From Minisyncoccia bacterium (lineage in GTDB: Bacteria > Patescibacteriota > Minisyncoccia > Phycocordibacterales > Phycocordibacteraceae): DNA of 34,573 bases. The first letter of the stretch is position 1. Every line of letters starts with the position of its first letter. The notes beneath the pieces were generated by a model. That model saw nothing but the letters and a program-made list of their open reading frames with translations. It was not told the DNA's origin and searched no databases. Positions 3,931-10,276 of the stretch are shown here, piece by piece. The stretch is taken from NCBI GenBank assembly GCA_038212075.1, contig JBBQUV010000006.1:1-34573 (forward strand). The letters are read 5' to 3'. A program made the translations under genes and the position numbers.

Positions 3931-4680
3931 TTAGTTCGTGACGCTGATGGTTGCGATAGCCTCGTTATCGTTTTCGTTTGATTCAATCACGTCGTGACCG
4001 GAGTCAACGAGAATGTCGATTTCTTGATTGTTTGCAACGCGTACGTCGCGAGCATCAAGGTGAAGGGTGAAGTCAACCCATGCTCCCGGAGGAAGACTTT
4101 CTTGCACGTTTGAGTCAAAGCCATATGTACCGTTTGACTGCGTAGGAAGCGTCATATGGATATTCCATGGACGGGTTACGTTTGTGCCGGCGTTTGTAAC
4201 GCGGTATTGCACCGCGAGCGTTTGTCCGGAGGCAATTGTCCTGCTTTGAACAAACTTACTGTTTGTATCAAGGTAGCCAACAGCGGTTACCGCAACCGTG
4301 AAGTTTGGCAGCCCGTAGAACGTGGTCGTTACAGGCACCTTAATTGGGTATGCGGTGGTGCTTGGAAGACCGGCGCTTGGCGTGGTGTGTACCGGTACGG
4401 TTGCCACTGGTGCTGGTGTGGTGGTCGTGGCTACAGTTGCAGGGGTGGTTGTAGCGGCGGGGAAGGGAAGGTTGGGAACAACCTGAAGGTTGCCATCACC
4501 TTTTCCGTCGGTTGAAAGATACACTGCACCCGCAAGGCGGGAGAGTGCTACGGGTACGTAGCGAGCCGCATAGATAGCGAGCACCATGCCGATAAAGACG
4601 AGTGCGACAAAGCCAACGATGGCTAGGCCGTTCACGGTGGATGTGCGTGGATTGGTGTCGGTAAATGTGGTCTGTTGCAT
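3931..4680 (-). CDS. Membrane-anchored surface protein with Thr/Pro-rich stalk and C-terminal CARDB-like Ig domain
   Basis: N-terminal TM (LAIVGFVALVFIGMVLAIYAA), T/P-rich linker, CARDB-type VTNAG...VDSGHDVIESNENDN. Confidence 0.75.
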   Translation of the reverse strand: MQQTTFTDTNPRTSTVNGLAIVGFVALVFIGMVLAIYAARYVPVALSRLAGAVYLSTDGKGDGNLQVVPNLPFPAATTTPATVATTTTPAPVATVPVHTTPSAGLPSTTAYPIKVPVTTTFYGLPNFTVAVTAVGYLDTNSKFVQSRTIASGQTLAVQYRVTNAGTNVTRPWNIHMTLPTQSNGTYGFDSNVQESLPPGAWVDFTLHLDARDVRVANNQEIDILVDSGHDVIESNENDNEAIATISVTN

Positions 4681-4687
4681 AGACTTA

Positions 4688-4776
4688 TATTTAACATATA
4701 GCTTATTTTTTGTCAACTACCCCCGCTCGCCGCGTTTTTGGGGGGACTTGACAAACTCTTCATAGTAGTGTATTTA
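4688..4776. promoter_or_regulatory. Divergent sigma70-type promoters for the CARDB gene (-) and sortase (+)
   Basis: TTGACA on each strand (4748-4753 on +; 4711-4716 on -), each followed after 17 nt by an AT-rich imperfect -10. Confidence 0.5.
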
Positions 4777-4789
4777 TATAGGGGACTAT

Positions 4790-5491
4790 ATGAATGGTAT
4801 TCACACAGCCGCGCGGCTCATTTGGGCCGTACAAGACGCTTGGAAAAAGCGTTGGTTGTTTCTTATAGCGTTCATATTCGTTTTTTTCATTTCGTTCTGT
4901 GCACTTCTTTCGTTCGACGTTGTGCCGAACACTACGTTCTCGTTTGCGTCTTCGACGCCGGCGCTTGCGGTTGATCGTTCGCCTCTTATTGGGGTGAGCA
5001 CATCCCCACTTTCGCCAAACGTCTTTGACGCGTTTGCGGTTGGTGAAAATCCCGTAAAGGTTGAGATTCCATCACTCAAACTTTCGGCACCGATTGCAAA
5101 CCCAACAACGACGAGTATTCAGGCGTTGAACAACTTGCTTCTTTCGGGAGCCGTTCGCTACCCGACGTCGGCAAAGCTTGGACAAAACGGCAACGTCATT
5201 CTCTTTGGTCACTCAGCAGAGTACTACCCGGTGGTAAACAACATCTGGTACAAAACGTTTGACCACATTGAGAAGCTGAAAGCAGGAGACACTATCATCG
5301 TCTACTCTTCTAGCCGTGCGTATACCTATTCGGTAGACACGGTGGAGAAAAAGGATGCGAGCGCAGACGTCATTCCGCTTTCGGTTGTTGGTGCAAAGCT
5401 TACGCTTTCCACTTGCGATACGTTTGGACAGAAATCGGATCGTTACGTGGTTACGGCGTCACTTGTTGAAAGCCATCTGCTTGGAGCGTAA
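4790..5491 (+). CDS. Sortase
   Basis: N-terminal TM; catalytic triad motifs GNVILFGHS, LTLSTC, downstream R (SDRYVV); typical VEIPSL and LKAGDTIIV segments. Confidence 0.9.
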   Translation: MNGIHTAARLIWAVQDAWKKRWLFLIAFIFVFFISFCALLSFDVVPNTTFSFASSTPALAVDRSPLIGVSTSPLSPNVFDAFAVGENPVKVEIPSLKLSAPIANPTTTSIQALNNLLLSGAVRYPTSAKLGQNGNVILFGHSAEYYPVVNNIWYKTFDHIEKLKAGDTIIVYSSSRAYTYSVDTVEKKDASADVIPLSVVGAKLTLSTCDTFGQKSDRYVVTASLVESHLLGA

Positions 5492-5581: not shown

Positions 5582-6628
5582 ATGAAGAAACTGATCGCAC
5601 TGCTCGCCGCGCTGTCCATCATTTGGACGGCTGGCGTGCCAGCGATTGCTGCACCGCTCGGGAATCCGTTCTATGTGGGGGCAACGTCTCCACAGGAACT
5701 GGGTCGCATTATCAAGTGCGACCTTGATCCCTCGCGCGGCAACAACGTTGATGGAACGAAAATTATCAACGTGAAAGTCTGCGGCAAGGTGGGAGATCGG
5801 GCATTTGCTGCTCCGGTCGACTACCTTGGTATGTTCCAGATCGACGACCCAGATGCACATCTGACGTCGGTTGCCCAAATTCCGGACTATCTCGCGGGAC
5901 TGGCAGAAATGCCGGTACCCACGGGTAAGTACTGGTCGGCGTGCCTCAAACAATCCACTCGGACGGTGTCCGGATGGAAGGCATACCATCAGTGCATTGC
6001 TCGTTCCTTCCACAAGGGCGAGAAGGCCTGGGGAAACAAGGTCACCGGTCGCATCGTCCTTATGGGCGACTGCACCAATCCGGTGAGTGGACCCGAAAAG
6101 CCGGATGACTGCGTGTACATTTACGCGCACATTCCGGCACAGGTCTACAGGCGGAACATTGCCCGAACGGTCACTGGACTGCGTCTTAAGCAGTACGGCC
6201 CCACGGACATTTCGGCAGACGTGTGCACCGGTGTTAAACGCGCTGGTGAACCCGACTACGAGAGCCCGTTTGTGGAAGAGTGTCCGGATCGCGGATGCAA
6301 CTTCTGGGCGATGGACAACTACCTCGGCGAGCATGGCTGGAAGACGGGAAGTTACGAACCTGCCCCCGGCCTGCACATCTTCCGCCTTCCGAGAAAAATG
6401 GCCGACAGGCTACTCGGATACCGGATGGTGTTCTGTCTGGATCTTTCAGACGGGACGCAGACAGAGTACAGCTCCATCGTCACCGCTCGGTTCTATCTTT
6501 CTGCCGGTGGCAGAACGGTAGCAACCATCTATGTTGATGAAACGACTGCAAATGCGGTCGGAACAAAAACGCTGGATGGTACACCAACCGACCTGTGGTG
6601 GCATTGGGCTTCGGAGCCCACGCAGTAA
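5582..6628 (+). CDS. Secreted cysteine-rich hypothetical protein (348 aa)
   Basis: Sec signal peptide MKKLIALLAALSIIWTAGVPAIAA, 10 Cys, SD, own terminator, CTG/ATC/GGC-rich codons. Confidence 0.8.
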   Translation: MKKLIALLAALSIIWTAGVPAIAAPLGNPFYVGATSPQELGRIIKCDLDPSRGNNVDGTKIINVKVCGKVGDRAFAAPVDYLGMFQIDDPDAHLTSVAQIPDYLAGLAEMPVPTGKYWSACLKQSTRTVSGWKAYHQCIARSFHKGEKAWGNKVTGRIVLMGDCTNPVSGPEKPDDCVYIYAHIPAQVYRRNIARTVTGLRLKQYGPTDISADVCTGVKRAGEPDYESPFVEECPDRGCNFWAMDNYLGEHGWKTGSYEPAPGLHIFRLPRKMADRLLGYRMVFCLDLSDGTQTEYSSIVTARFYLSAGGRTVATIYVDETTANAVGTKTLDGTPTDLWWHWASEPTQ

Positions 6629-6752: not shown

Positions 6753-9131
6753 ATGGTAACTATGACTGAACATCTTGCATACGCAAAAGCGCGACCGGTA
6801 CTGACCGGGCTGTTTGCCGTACTTGCCGTACTTCTTGTCGGTATCGCCGCCGCCTTTGTGTTTGGTCTTACGACCCCACCGGCTGCACATGCTGATATTG
6901 GTCCTCCCTGTTGTCTTCCACCACCACCTCCTCCGCCCCCACCACCCCCACCACCACCTCCTCCGCCCCCACCACCCCCAGCGTGTACGCTTTCTGCAAC
7001 ACCAAATACGTTTGGTAGCGCAGGCGGCACAACCACGCTTACGTGGACGAGCATAAACTCGCTCACGGGCACTATTGATAACGGTGTTGGTGCGGTCACG
7101 CCAATTGCTGGTGGTTCAGTTTCTGCAGGTGTTTCCCACACCGCCACATACACGCTTACCGTAACTGGTCCGGGCGGTGTCGTGACCTGTCACACAACAG
7201 TGACTATTACGAATCCACCACCGGCATGTACGCTTACGGCAGATCCCCCAATCACTACGAATGGTCAGTCCACACTTTCGTGGACGACACAAAACGCCAC
7301 GTCATTTGTTATTGACCACACCGTTGGTTCAGTAACTCCTGTCGCAAGTGGTTCAAAACTAGTGACTGGCATTGCCGTCACAACCACCTATACCGGTACC
7401 GCAACGGGTCCTGGTGGCACGGTAACCTGTACGACTATTGTTACCGTTCCTCCGCCAGACGCACCATTCTGTACGCTTAGCGCAAATCCAAAGAGCGTAC
7501 TTTCAGGCGGCTCTTCAACACTTACGTGGACGACCGGTCACAGCGTTTCGTTCTCTATCGACCAAAGTATTGGTGCCCTTACGCCTGTACCCGGTGGAAC
7601 ACATGTAGTGAACAACATTACGGCAACAACCACGTACACGGGTACGGCAACTGCGGCCGATGGAAAAATTGCACACTGTACCGCAGTCGTTACGGTGAAG
7701 CCGGTAACGCTTGTTCCTGTGTGTACGCTTTCCGCGAGCCCAGCTTCGTTTGTTGGAAGTGGAGCACCAGTGCTTACATGGACATCTGCAAACATCACTG
7801 CGCTCACGATTGATCACGCGGTCGGTGCTGTAACGCCTGTTGCCTCTGGTTCAGTAACTGCAGGCACTATCGCGACAACCACAACGTATACCGCAACCGG
7901 TACTGGCCCTTATGGACCAACAACGTGTTCGACGCAGGTAGTAGTGACGCCGGTCTCCAACACACTCGCCTGTACGCTCTCTGCAAATCCAGACTCGTTC
8001 GGATCGACAGGTGGTACGACCGTGCTTTCATGGACAACGCAACACGCTGTTTCGTTCTCTATTGATCAAAGCATTGGTGCGGTAACTCCTGTTGGAAGTG
8101 GCTCAACAAGTACGCCAGTGACTTCAACCAAAACATTCAACGGTATCGCAACTGATGCCGCTGGAAACACTGCACAGTGTCACGTTGAAGTAACGGTTTC
8201 AACCAGTCATGGTCACGGTTGTACCTCGGGCTGTGGAGGTGGCGGACACACGCCGGATATTGGACTTGATTCTGCACCAACGCTTCCACTTGCGTTCGTG
8301 TATCTCTCGCAGATTCCGTATACCGGTCTTGACCTTGGTCCTGTCGGCACGGTTATCTACTGGCTTGCGCTTATTCTTTGGAGTCTTGCGCTCGCGTACC
8401 TGCTTCTTTTCAGGATGATTCCGTATGCACGAAATCGTGCAGTAACTTTCGGTTCGAGTGTTCGCAGTGCGATTAATCACGAAGCTGAAGTAATTGCGCA
8501 CGACTTCCATACCTATCCATCACCTGCGGAATCAACGCACGCCTACTACTCGCAGAATGTAGAACCGATAGAAGTGCCAAACACTGAACCAATTGCTCCG
8601 GAACCATCGCACGGTTATTCAACCTATGACGGATTCCGTTCCTTTGGTCGTGACGCGCTTACGATTGAAGACATTGTAAAAGGTTTGACGCGCGAAACAC
8701 CACGTCCTGCCGCACCTGCACCAATGGAACCAATTATGGTTCCTGCGCCGGTGGCGACAGTGCCTGCTCCCGTATTCGTCTCAACACCAACGCCGTCAGA
8801 CTCGCCACGTGATGTTCGCGGCATTATTGACGCGCTCCTTCATGGAGACAAAGACGCCGTATTCGGCACTCTTCGCAACGTTGTCCGTGGAGGTGGCAAC
8901 GTCGGATACTTCCTTACGGAAGTAGTCTGCGCACTTGACGACTCGTATCGCGCTCGTGTTGATGGTACGCCTGCAGACCCTGAAGTCGCACGCATCACTG
9001 CAAACTGTGATACGCCCGTACTTGAAAAGCTTGTGGGCGCACTTGCAACTGCCGTTGACTCAAGCTACTCACTTGACGTCACCGGTGCGAAGCTTGCGCT
9101 TACGCGTGCGTTCGCGGTTCTCGGAAAATAA
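6753..9131 (+). CDS. Large surface protein, probable sortase substrate: signal peptide, poly-Pro, five Cys-paired Ig-like repeats, IPYTG + TM, long cytoplasmic tail
   Basis: AHA-D cleavage site; five repeats starting CTL(S/T)A..L(T/S)WT and ending in a second Cys; IPYTG at 8313-8327, then a hydrophobic helix and RMIPYARNR. Start at 6753 or 6762. Confidence 0.85.
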   Translation: MVTMTEHLAYAKARPVLTGLFAVLAVLLVGIAAAFVFGLTTPPAAHADIGPPCCLPPPPPPPPPPPPPPPPPPPPPACTLSATPNTFGSAGGTTTLTWTSINSLTGTIDNGVGAVTPIAGGSVSAGVSHTATYTLTVTGPGGVVTCHTTVTITNPPPACTLTADPPITTNGQSTLSWTTQNATSFVIDHTVGSVTPVASGSKLVTGIAVTTTYTGTATGPGGTVTCTTIVTVPPPDAPFCTLSANPKSVLSGGSSTLTWTTGHSVSFSIDQSIGALTPVPGGTHVVNNITATTTYTGTATAADGKIAHCTAVVTVKPVTLVPVCTLSASPASFVGSGAPVLTWTSANITALTIDHAVGAVTPVASGSVTAGTIATTTTYTATGTGPYGPTTCSTQVVVTPVSNTLACTLSANPDSFGSTGGTTVLSWTTQHAVSFSIDQSIGAVTPVGSGSTSTPVTSTKTFNGIATDAAGNTAQCHVEVTVSTSHGHGCTSGCGGGGHTPDIGLDSAPTLPLAFVYLSQIPYTGLDLGPVGTVIYWLALILWSLALAYLLLFRMIPYARNRAVTFGSSVRSAINHEAEVIAHDFHTYPSPAESTHAYYSQNVEPIEVPNTEPIAPEPSHGYSTYDGFRSFGRDALTIEDIVKGLTRETPRPAAPAPMEPIMVPAPVATVPAPVFVSTPTPSDSPRDVRGIIDALLHGDKDAVFGTLRNVVRGGGNVGYFLTEVVCALDDSYRARVDGTPADPEVARITANCDTPVLEKLVGALATAVDSSYSLDVTGAKLALTRAFAVLGK
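6918..6980 (+). repeat. Poly-proline coding tract with exact 30-bp tandem duplication
   Basis: CCACCACCTCCTCCGCCCCCACCACCCCCA at 6921-6950 and 6951-6980; 21 consecutive Pro codons. Confidence 0.95.
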
Positions 9132-9135
9132 TACA

Positions 9136-9179
9136 TAAAACAAAAACCCCGCGGCTTTCGCCGCGGGGTTTTTGTTTTA
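9136..9179. terminator. Bidirectional intrinsic terminator
   Basis: Perfect 20-bp inverted repeat TAAAACAAAAACCCCGCGGC-TTTC-GCCGCGGGGTTTTTGTTTTA between convergent genes. Confidence 0.92.
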
Positions 9180-9959
9180 CTCTGCAACGTCTTCACTTAT
9201 GATGTGCATGGGAAGCGCTATCAAGCGATCAACACGTTCGAACCATGCTCCGCTCCACTCCTCTACGCCAAATTTCAGAACGTTAGGTTGATGCTCTAAG
9301 GTTCCCGCCAGTTTGTCCCACCAGGAGAAAAGCGCTGAATAATTAGAGTTCGCCTCGCTGACTTGTACTGAATGATGCACGTGATGCATTTGAGGTACGA
9401 CGACAATGTATCCAAGCCAGCTGAGCCACATGGGTATGGCCAGGTTACTGTGATGAAACGTTTGCATGATTGCCGCCGCACCGGTGTATACGAGTATCGC
9501 GAGTGGTGAAAGACCGAGCAACACAATAATGGGGAGGTTAAGCAGTGCGCCGACGATAAGCTCAGCGGGGTGGTGTCGGATAGCAGTGGAGGCGTCGACA
9601 TCAACATCAGAGTGATGCACGGCATGTATCGCCCAAAGTACCGGTGCCGCGTGGAATATTCGATGCAACACATATGCCATACCATCAAGCACGATAAAAG
9701 AAACGAAAATCACGATGACAAATGGAAGGTGTATTACGTTGAATACGCCCCAACCATCTCGCTGTGCCAGCAGCGCAATCCCAACTCCAGCGACGGAAAG
9801 AGGGATGGTGCTCACGAGAACGTTCAACACAAATATGCCAAGATTGCTCGTCCAACGTAACAACCGGGGAAGAGAACGCTCTCGTATCGGCCAGATGAGC
9901 TCAAGCGTCGTGAATCCAGTAAGTGCAATTCCTACTGAGACCCAAGACATTAGAATCAT
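9177..9959 (-). CDS. Sterol desaturase / fatty acid hydroxylase superfamily membrane di-iron enzyme
   Basis: His boxes HRIFH, HAVHH, FHHSN, HHVHH; NSNYS..WDKL; several TMs. ATG 9959 overlaps the upstream stop (ATGA). Confidence 0.9.
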   Translation of the reverse strand: MILMSWVSVGIALTGFTTLELIWPIRERSLPRLLRWTSNLGIFVLNVLVSTIPLSVAGVGIALLAQRDGWGVFNVIHLPFVIVIFVSFIVLDGMAYVLHRIFHAAPVLWAIHAVHHSDVDVDASTAIRHHPAELIVGALLNLPIIVLLGLSPLAILVYTGAAAIMQTFHHSNLAIPMWLSWLGYIVVVPQMHHVHHSVQVSEANSNYSALFSWWDKLAGTLEHQPNVLKFGVEEWSGAWFERVDRLIALPMHIISEDVAE

Positions 9960-10276
9960 GTAGGCAGCTGTATCGGAGGAGGGAGGGGGGTGTCGGTGAA
10001 AAACTGTGAGTTGAGGAATAAAAATAGTGCCACTATCAAAACAATTCCACATGCGCAATACCAGATCATCCAGCTCGTGCGTTTGCGAGCATTATCTGAT
10101 ACTCCAGGTCTTAGTGCGGTAAGTGCCCTGAAGATGATATAGGCCACAAGAGCCACTAATACCGTTGCTGTTAGTGGAATGTAATCAGGATAGTCTGGCG
10201 ACTGCTGTGGGTAATGGCCTCCAGAATAATTAATGTCCGTAACCGGTACCATCGCTGACATTGCAATATGTTCCAT
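9956..10276 (-). CDS. Small two-TM membrane protein
   Basis: Two hydrophobic helices; TGgTATTTT 6 nt before ATG; ATGA overlap with the desaturase. Confidence 0.6.
   Translation of the reverse strand: MEHIAMSAMVPVTDINYSGGHYPQQSPDYPDYIPLTATVLVALVAYIIFRALTALRPGVSDNARKRTSWMIWYCACGIVLIVALFLFLNSQFFTDTPLPPPIQLPT

Follow-up and report, generated by a model that had tools for sequence, protein, structure and literature searches.

The locus and its surface-protein precursor

The gene examined here encodes a putative surface-protein precursor and lies in a 34,573-nucleotide stretch of DNA from a Minisyncoccia bacterium (GenBank assembly GCA_038212075.1, contig JBBQUV010000006.1, forward strand), which is referred to as a whole as the window. 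According to the open reading frame (ORF) list, the gene spans 6753-9131 on the + strand and consists of 792 codons and a stop codon (9129-9131). It stands last in a cassette of three genes arranged head to tail on the + strand, in which a sortase gene comes first (1.3 kb upstream of the precursor gene) and a gene for a Cys-rich protein comes second. The segments of the precursor and the sortase gene are as follows, with the basis of each assignment in brackets (pLDDT, predicted local distance difference test).

6753..9131, + strand: surface-protein precursor gene (ORF; start set by N-terminal alignment with full-length relatives)
6753..6893, + strand: signal or anchor at the N-terminus, basic and hydrophobic, with AHA at its end (by-eye reading of the translation)
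6915..6983, + strand: run of 23 prolines with Cys at its flanks (translation; tandem CCN codons at 6918-6980)
6984..8222, + strand: five repeats of ~80-85 amino acids (aa), each with a C-T-L-[ST]-A opening and a second, closing Cys; presumed extracellular stalk (Cys positions)
8289..8438, + strand: extended sorting signal made up of (F)VYLSQ, IPYTG, LDLGPVGT, a membrane helix and RMIPYARNR (motif kept in related loci)
8463..8594, + strand: poorly conserved cytoplasmic segment (commonest-residue share 0.25; pLDDT 46-58)
8595..8696, + strand: conserved motif YS.Y.GF.SF...L.I(E/D)DIVKGL.RE (12 of 34 columns at least 90% conserved)
8697..8804, + strand: Pro-rich variable linker (0 of 36 columns at least 90% conserved; low pLDDT)
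8805..9128, + strand: predicted six-helix domain with a clamp-loader collar fold, similar to DnaX domain III (AlphaFold2, VIA, hhalign and Atlas)
4790..5491, + strand: sortase, the only one in the genome (PF04203, E 8.9e-23, 80.8 bits against a cut-off of 26.6)

An earlier annotation made from the letters alone (the sequence-only reading) had described a sortase-type signal followed by a long cytoplasmic tail, and this layout is borne out: IPYTG (8313-8327), a 20-residue hydrophobic helix (8352-8411), the basic patch RMIPYARNR (8412-8438) and ~230 residues beyond that patch all lie in one frame. Two of its positions shifted, namely the gene start, for which the ATG at 6753 is likelier than 6531 since residues 1-20 line up with the beginning of full-length relatives, and the start of the folded domain, which is at about 8805 and not at 8811.

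The outer part of the protein is less readily classified. Its repeats, which start at residues 78, 159, 240, 324 and 407, had no sequence match in Pfam, NCBIfam or the PDB, and a Gly/His/Cys-rich junction separates them from the sorting signal. Since the repeats match no family, we can only infer a role of the outer part in host attachment. Between the CC pair and the first repeat, the proline codons at 6915-6983 contain a perfect 30-nucleotide unit repeated 2.1 times, and this run may tend to change in length.

Pairing of the sorting signal with a single sortase

The neighboring sortase, which the sequence-only reading had named as the enzyme for IPYTG, appears catalytically intact, as its His, the Cys of TLSTC and its Arg align with those of Bacillus anthracis SrtA (2kw8). 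It could be assigned to none of the classes covered by the NCBIfam sortase models (A-F), all of which scored far under their cut-offs (best, class E, 47 bits against 160). The whole genome (691 kb in 10 contigs, 100% complete) contains one sortase match and one tail gene, and it also encodes machinery for peptidoglycan, the acceptor in sortase linkage, with MraY and three PBP-type transpeptidases. When all frames of at least 80 aa were scanned for a pentapeptide of the sortase type with a hydrophobic stretch after it, 31 matches were obtained, among which the precursor ORF was the only convincing candidate for a sorting signal. The sole LPLTG match was rejected, being the C-terminus of an FtsW/RodA-like polytopic protein.

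For comparison across genomes, we used the best 80 of 127 confirmed relatives from species-representative genomes, the sources being metagenome bins of Paceibacterota, Kaiserbacteria and Parcubacteria. The pattern [IVTLM]P[YQ]TG was found at the aligned position in all 80 loci (IPYTG in 60, VPYTG in 8, TPYTG in 5, IPQTG in 3, and LPYTG and MPYTG in 2 each), and the distance from motif to stop was 248-322 aa in every one. Of these loci, 59 extend 3 kb or more upstream, and all 59 have a same-strand homolog of the window's sortase in that region; in the remaining 21 of the 80, where the sequence ends less than 2.6 kb upstream, no sortase was seen. The neighboring sortase is thus a constant companion of the signal wherever enough sequence is available. 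The protein combines an LPXTG-like pentapeptide, a hydrophobic segment with basic residues and a sortase in the same genome, and the best reading of these sequence features is that it would be the dedicated substrate of the genome's only sortase, which forms one part of the two-part precursor proposed below.

Conservation and distribution of the cytoplasmic tail

When the 272 residues that run from IPYTG to the C-terminus served as the query of an exhaustive HMMER search, the cluster representatives found numbered 471 at E ≤ 1e-3, 196 at ≤ 1e-10 and 124 at ≤ 1e-30; conservation of the tail in homologs, on which the sequence-only reading had staked its interpretation, is therefore well documented. 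The match lies at the C-terminal end in all 150 matches listed, in proteins of 94-1378 aa. By regular expression, xP[YQH][TS]G followed by a hydrophobic run was found in 109 of these 150; many of the 41 without it are fragments that start within the tail.

Conservation along the protein was profiled with the window and 79 loci, after exclusion of one locus that contained X residues. On average, the commonest residue of a column had a share of 0.95 in the motif, 0.89 in the spacer LDLGPVGT and 0.74 in the membrane helix, and then 0.25 in the first cytoplasmic stretch, 0.70 in the middle motif (8595-8696), 0.32 in the Pro-rich linker and 0.69 in the last 108 residues, where 30 columns reach at least 90%. 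The frame is complete in 61 of the 80 loci, where the outer part measures 85-956 aa, and in these loci the similarity to the window protein amounts to 0.78 bits per residue in the tail vs 0.23 in the outer part. The tail is the constrained part of the protein and the outer part is much freer.

This pattern would also fit a protein that is never cleaved but remains a bitopic transmembrane adhesin or receptor in which PYTG is a juxtamembrane element, perhaps docking the sortase without turnover, and the joined module clusters or signals. A tail more conserved than the stalk fits a need for continued connection, and no known substrate carries such a tail. Furthermore, the LDLGPxGT spacer is nearly as conserved as the motif (0.89 vs 0.95), and LPXTG signals usually need less spacer conservation than this. 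However, the sortase would then be left without a substrate, this ORF being the only candidate in the genome, and the sortase adjacency (59/59), the T-G pair (80/80) and the classical geometry of the signal all speak for processing. The signal also accompanies sortases even where the tail is short or different, as described next, and we consider an uncleaved protein unlikely.

In an order-wide sample of 301 genomes, the tail profile (threshold E ≤ 1e-5) matched in 61 and a sortase was present in 138; these counts include one genome flagged as unpublished (G772), which is sortase-positive and tail-negative. A sortase was found in 60 of the 61 tail-positive genomes vs 78 of the 240 tail-negative ones, and the sole tail-positive genome without a sortase (G695) is 93% complete and has the gene near a contig start. 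Judging from the match table, the match includes the collar region in 41 of the 61 genomes and is confined to signal and helix in the other 20. In 17 collar-positive genomes inspected by eye, tail and sortase share contig and strand and are 1-5 kb apart in each case. In 12 of the 20 signal-only genomes, which are distant from the window's, inspection revealed a YLSQ-type xP[YA]TG signal with helix and basic residues beside a sortase every time, with tails of 63-163 aa, 7 of the 12 holding a lid-like module only (by eye). Because these signal-only genomes keep the xP[YA]TG signal beside the sortase despite their shorter tails, sortase and signal form the invariable pair, to which a changeable cytoplasmic tail composed of lid and collar modules is added. 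Four classes of tail were distinguished: lid only, lid and collar, lid remnant and collar, and short. Outside the order, the family is rare in the genomes sampled (2 of 151 genomes of the class and 3 of 401 of the phylum, each count including the window's genome).

Several further observations concern this family. Species of the window's own genus match the tail at E ~1e-98 to 1e-110, and the only other genus of the window's family in the samples (G060) has a sortase-adjacent copy (C1:209275-212157) with a tail identity of only 27%, so the tail has diverged to different extents in closely related lineages. A D(P/D)FI(M/L)(S/Q)QI-type motif ends the short tails (90-92 aa; L120 and L121) of some sortase-adjacent PYTG proteins and also ends post-collar extensions in two distant relatives (P0134 and P0145), so it may be a separate small module. 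A match to DUF7259 in 1 of 46 family members was sub-threshold (E 0.008-0.018, 15-16.5 bits against a cut-off of 27) and was dropped. Among sequencing runs, a sediment metagenome was the single DNA holder listed, and RNA holders were absent from the list.

The end of the tail resembles the clamp-loader collar

An AlphaFold2 model of the tail, built from a 46-row alignment, contains a six-helix domain at tail residues 168-272 with pLDDT mostly > 90. The model was aligned with VIA to each of 48,161 PDB representatives, and ranks 1-11 were all C-terminal domains of AAA+ proteins of the clamp-loader or MgsA type. The E. coli gamma subunit (chain residues 245-361) was superimposed on model residues 164-271 with Z 14.4 and a root-mean-square deviation (rmsd) of 2.4 Å over 108 residues, followed by B. 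subtilis delta (12.8), yeast RFC and E. coli delta' (10.4 each), the P. furiosus RFC small subunit (10.3), E. coli delta (8.6), T4 gp44 (8.3) and three MgsA-type domains (7.3-7.8), and the first unrelated chain in the ranking had Z 6.8. Foldseek agreed with this picture, ranks 1-32 being E. coli clamp-loader chains throughout, among the matches listed.

Profile comparisons led to the same domain. With hhalign, the tail alignment matched an alignment of DnaX domain III from the phylum (23 genomes) over 83 columns (probability 84.3%, E 7.2e-6), and a second, independent tail alignment (the window and 79 loci) matched full DnaX in the same register (E 9.3e-5); reversed-alignment controls with either alignment gave E 0.29-0.31 and a probability of 0.2%. 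By the language-model features of the Atlas, the top score was 0.93, with 183 shared features out of 256, and PF12169 clusters accounted for 25 of 30 matches. Weak PF12169 matches were seen in 4 of 46 relatives (best E 0.12) and a Rep_fac_C match in 1 (E 0.0082), and a PF12169 search of the genome itself found DnaX as its sole match. With the collar as the query, neither BLASTP against the DnaX of the same genome (E ≤ 100) nor phmmer against PDB sequences (E ≤ 10) gave a match, so the likeness lies below the level of pairwise sequence comparison. Atlas clusters labeled Uroviricota (viral), Minisyncoccota and Omnitrophota contain stand-alone proteins of ~110-126 aa with PF12169 only, and the collar module thus also circulates as a free small protein.

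The relatives with the longest tails are informative about the origin of the tail. A distant subgroup with tails of 330-380 aa is homologous to the window's tail (E 3.1e-40, 274 columns), and one of its members, modeled from a 10-row alignment (mean pLDDT 67, two domains near 90), is predicted to contain a helix-strand-helix-helix-strand-helix domain followed by a collar. The first of these domains resembles AAA+ lids (Z 8.7 for Hda, 8.6 for DnaA IIIb, 8.2 for RuvB, 8.1 for E. coli gamma 176-243, 7.6 for RFC and ~7 for Lon). The collar matches B. subtilis delta (Z 12.9, rmsd 2.3 Å), and E. coli gamma covers lid and collar in order. The profile of this subgroup is colinear with the DnaX lid and domain III (probability 94.3%, E 1e-7, 149 columns). 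Because the long-tailed relatives carry lid and collar in DnaX order, the most likely ancestor of the tail family is a clamp-loader subunit whose ATPase domain was lost and whose domains II-III remained. The window protein has no P-loop ATPase domain, and its lid is represented by a motif only: the middle motif at 8595-8696 is probably the AAA+ lid remnant of the window's subgroup, its register on the lid being unsettled, as MAFFT and hhalign place it on different lid halves.

Several results weigh against a collar assignment. Helical bundles can score Z ~13 in VIA from their arrangement alone. The best Foldseek E value was 8.9e-3, with no row at 1e-3, partly because the query also included the disordered tail. 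The second tail alignment reached a probability of only 58.9% against full DnaX, and the identity between tail and DnaX is 14-15%. The near-invariant polar residues of the tail family (tail positions 209-213, 238, 249-253, 260 and 265) differ from those of DnaX, so the interface may differ as well. Finally, no Pfam or NCBIfam model, PF12169 included, matched the window protein at threshold. If the likeness were a chance resemblance between helical bundles, the tail would be an unrelated new domain, and the lack of a Pfam match over threshold, the modest Foldseek E value and the Z scores that helical models reach without kinship are all compatible with this. However, a single superfamily supplies the 11 top-scoring chains out of 48,161, with matches over the full length of the domain, three profile comparisons share one register while reversed controls give E 0.3, and the relatives hold lid and collar in DnaX order, with 25 of 30 Atlas matches in PF12169 clusters. 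A chance resemblance is thus very improbable, the least probable of the readings considered here. The last 108 residues appear to be a diverged homolog of clamp-loader domain III (the collar), as judged from profiles and structure models. The likeness to DnaX domain III proposed in the sequence-only reading therefore holds by fold, by profile-profile comparison and by language-model features, but not for the PF12169 model itself.

A proposed two-part precursor

The reading that we prefer, with a rough probability of 0.55, is that the protein is a two-part precursor, i.e., a dedicated sortase substrate from which a wall-linked stalk and a membrane stub with a self-associating, DnaX-derived module would arise. 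The proposed steps are as follows: (i) the neighboring sortase would cut between T and G of IPYTG, at a site that lies within YLSQIPYTGLDLGP, and would join the stalk to peptidoglycan; (ii) the cleavage would leave G-LDLGPVGT-helix-tail behind as a membrane-anchored stub; (iii) the collar-like domain of the stub may self-associate, analogous to DnaX domain III; and (iv) this self-association would cluster precursors or stubs beneath the membrane, where the assembled stubs could act as a scaffold, a processing checkpoint or a signal. Tail self-association, the third step, is suggested only by the precedent of DnaX domain III, which is reported to self-associate.

Three points count against sortase processing as such. 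Unlike the pentapeptide, the hydrophobic and basic segments and the sortase gene, which are present, the position of the signal is atypical, as it does not lie at the extreme C-terminus but is followed by ~230 residues. To our knowledge, a folded tail of this size after a sorting signal is without precedent among known substrates, and the IPYTG-type motif could for this reason have another purpose. In addition, the cross-genome counts are drawn from kin and are not independent. Overall, what the sequence-only reading had observed is confirmed, whereas its interpretation, a transmembrane device in which the collar either oligomerizes the adhesin or engages the clamp loader, is partly supported.

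Neighboring genes and the replication machinery

The remaining features around the cassette are listed below.

3931..4716, - strand: CARDB-domain membrane or secreted protein (Pfam CARDB, E 9.5e-7)
5582..6628, + strand: Cys-rich, lipoprotein-like secreted protein of no known family (NF038029 E 4.6e-4, below cut-off; no Pfam family)
9135..9180, no strand: 20-pair GC-rich hairpin with A and T runs at its flanks (consensus scan; pattern match only)
9177..10058, - strand: FA_hydroxylase-family membrane protein (PF04116, E 1.3e-28), between the cassette and the threonyl-tRNA synthetase (ThrRS) gene

The CARDB gene is divergent and lies upstream of the cassette, with a relative in 56 of the 80 loci, and the Cys-rich protein has a relative in 28 of the 80 (phmmer E < 1e-5). 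The hairpin has a perfect stem, begins 4 nucleotides past the stop codon and is situated between the convergent precursor and fatty-acid-hydroxylase genes; it is likely a bidirectional terminator that closes the cassette. None of the 80 related loci contains a relative of the FA_hydroxylase gene, whose presence here therefore looks like an insertion specific to the lineage.

Replication genes are frequent around the cassette in these 80 loci (GyrB in 53, DnaE in 69 and RNase HII in 49). This bears on a different explanation, in which the membrane-tethered DnaX-like module binds clamp-loader subunits (DnaX or delta') and so ties surface processing or attachment to replication. Besides this synteny, the homology of the tail to the DnaX lid and collar is in its favor, and so is the replication gene content of the genome: the DnaX frame is short, at 353 aa (G000 C1:62233-63294 region; L002:838-1896), with domains I-III and without the tau-type C-terminal part, and a clear HolA was not found with PF06144, PF21694 or TIGR01128, models that may miss one. 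However, failure of these models to find HolA does not mean that it is absent, ThrRS is equally syntenic (77 of 80), so that the synteny may be plain inheritance, and the DnaX identity of the tail is low (14-15%), with different invariant residues. DnaX frames of the phylum measure 506-587 aa in 21 of 23 genomes, the two short ones being those of the window's genome and of G026 (372 aa). A link between the short DnaX and the tail was rejected, since G026, which belongs to the same class, lacks the tail. We hold the binding of clamp-loader subunits to be very improbable. A more specific version, in which the stub is a membrane-tethered decoy or dock, in the form of an ATPase-free DnaX lid/collar module, that binds DnaX or delta' depending on the state of sortase processing, so that an episymbiont would gate replication by the state of its attachment organelle, is slightly less probable again. 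A second delta'-like gene was observed in the window's genome (C4:22878-23111).

Comparison with known systems

No description of a mid-chain sorting signal with a clamp-loader-like tail was found in the literature searched, subscription journals and supplements being outside the search. Literature naming IPYTG was unrelated work only, papers on sortases, Patescibacteria and LPXTG appeared unrelated by title and abstract, and the passages available on Parcubacteria sortases deal with sortase prevalence and "sortase motifs" only. As far as we know, the rule for sortases is that the sorting signal ends the protein and that the remnant is waste or at most a small cue. The two-part precursor would depart from this rule in a host-dependent, genome-reduced lineage, whose 691-kb genome retains a single sortase with a single substrate and in which the part that would be left behind is conserved more strongly than the displayed part and is derived from replication machinery. 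If cleavage is confirmed, this would represent a new route by which two proteins, one on each side of the membrane, are made at a coupled stoichiometry, and it would provide a testable handle on the connection between surface and cytoplasm in these uncultured cells.

The closest familiar arrangement is that of LPXTG-type signals with a dedicated sortase beside its own substrate, e.g., SrtB and IsdC of Staphylococcus aureus. The likeness consists of a pentapeptide ending in TG, a spacer, a hydrophobic helix and basic residues, together with a sortase that is catalytically intact by sequence in the same cluster, with one enzyme for one substrate. In contrast to that type, xPYTG is here embedded in a longer conserved block 267 residues from the C-terminus, a predicted folded cytoplasmic domain comes after the signal, and the sortase fits none of the NCBIfam class models.

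A functional remnant of a sorting signal has one precedent, by analogy, in the C-pep circuit of Streptococcus gordonii, in which the membrane stub left after sortase cleavage is reported to have its own job (Hall et al. 2019, as described in the discussion of PMC7763024). There, C-pep is an ordinary short signal remnant that is sensed by an intramembrane two-component system. What the two systems would share is a sortase-remnant stub with a function, which in our case is proposed; they differ in that the stub here would bear a conserved 230-residue module and that no sensor is known for it.

The tail itself compares with DnaX domains II-III and with the collar domains of delta, delta', RFC, T4 gp44 and MgsA, to which it is similar in fold and in profile. 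It differs from DnaX in that the P-loop ATPase domain is missing, the lid is reduced to a motif, the identity is 14-15% and the Pfam match is sub-threshold, and in that the module is anchored by a membrane helix that follows a sorting signal. Together, this likeness and these differences would amount to a second career for the lid and collar domains of the clamp loader, outside replication.

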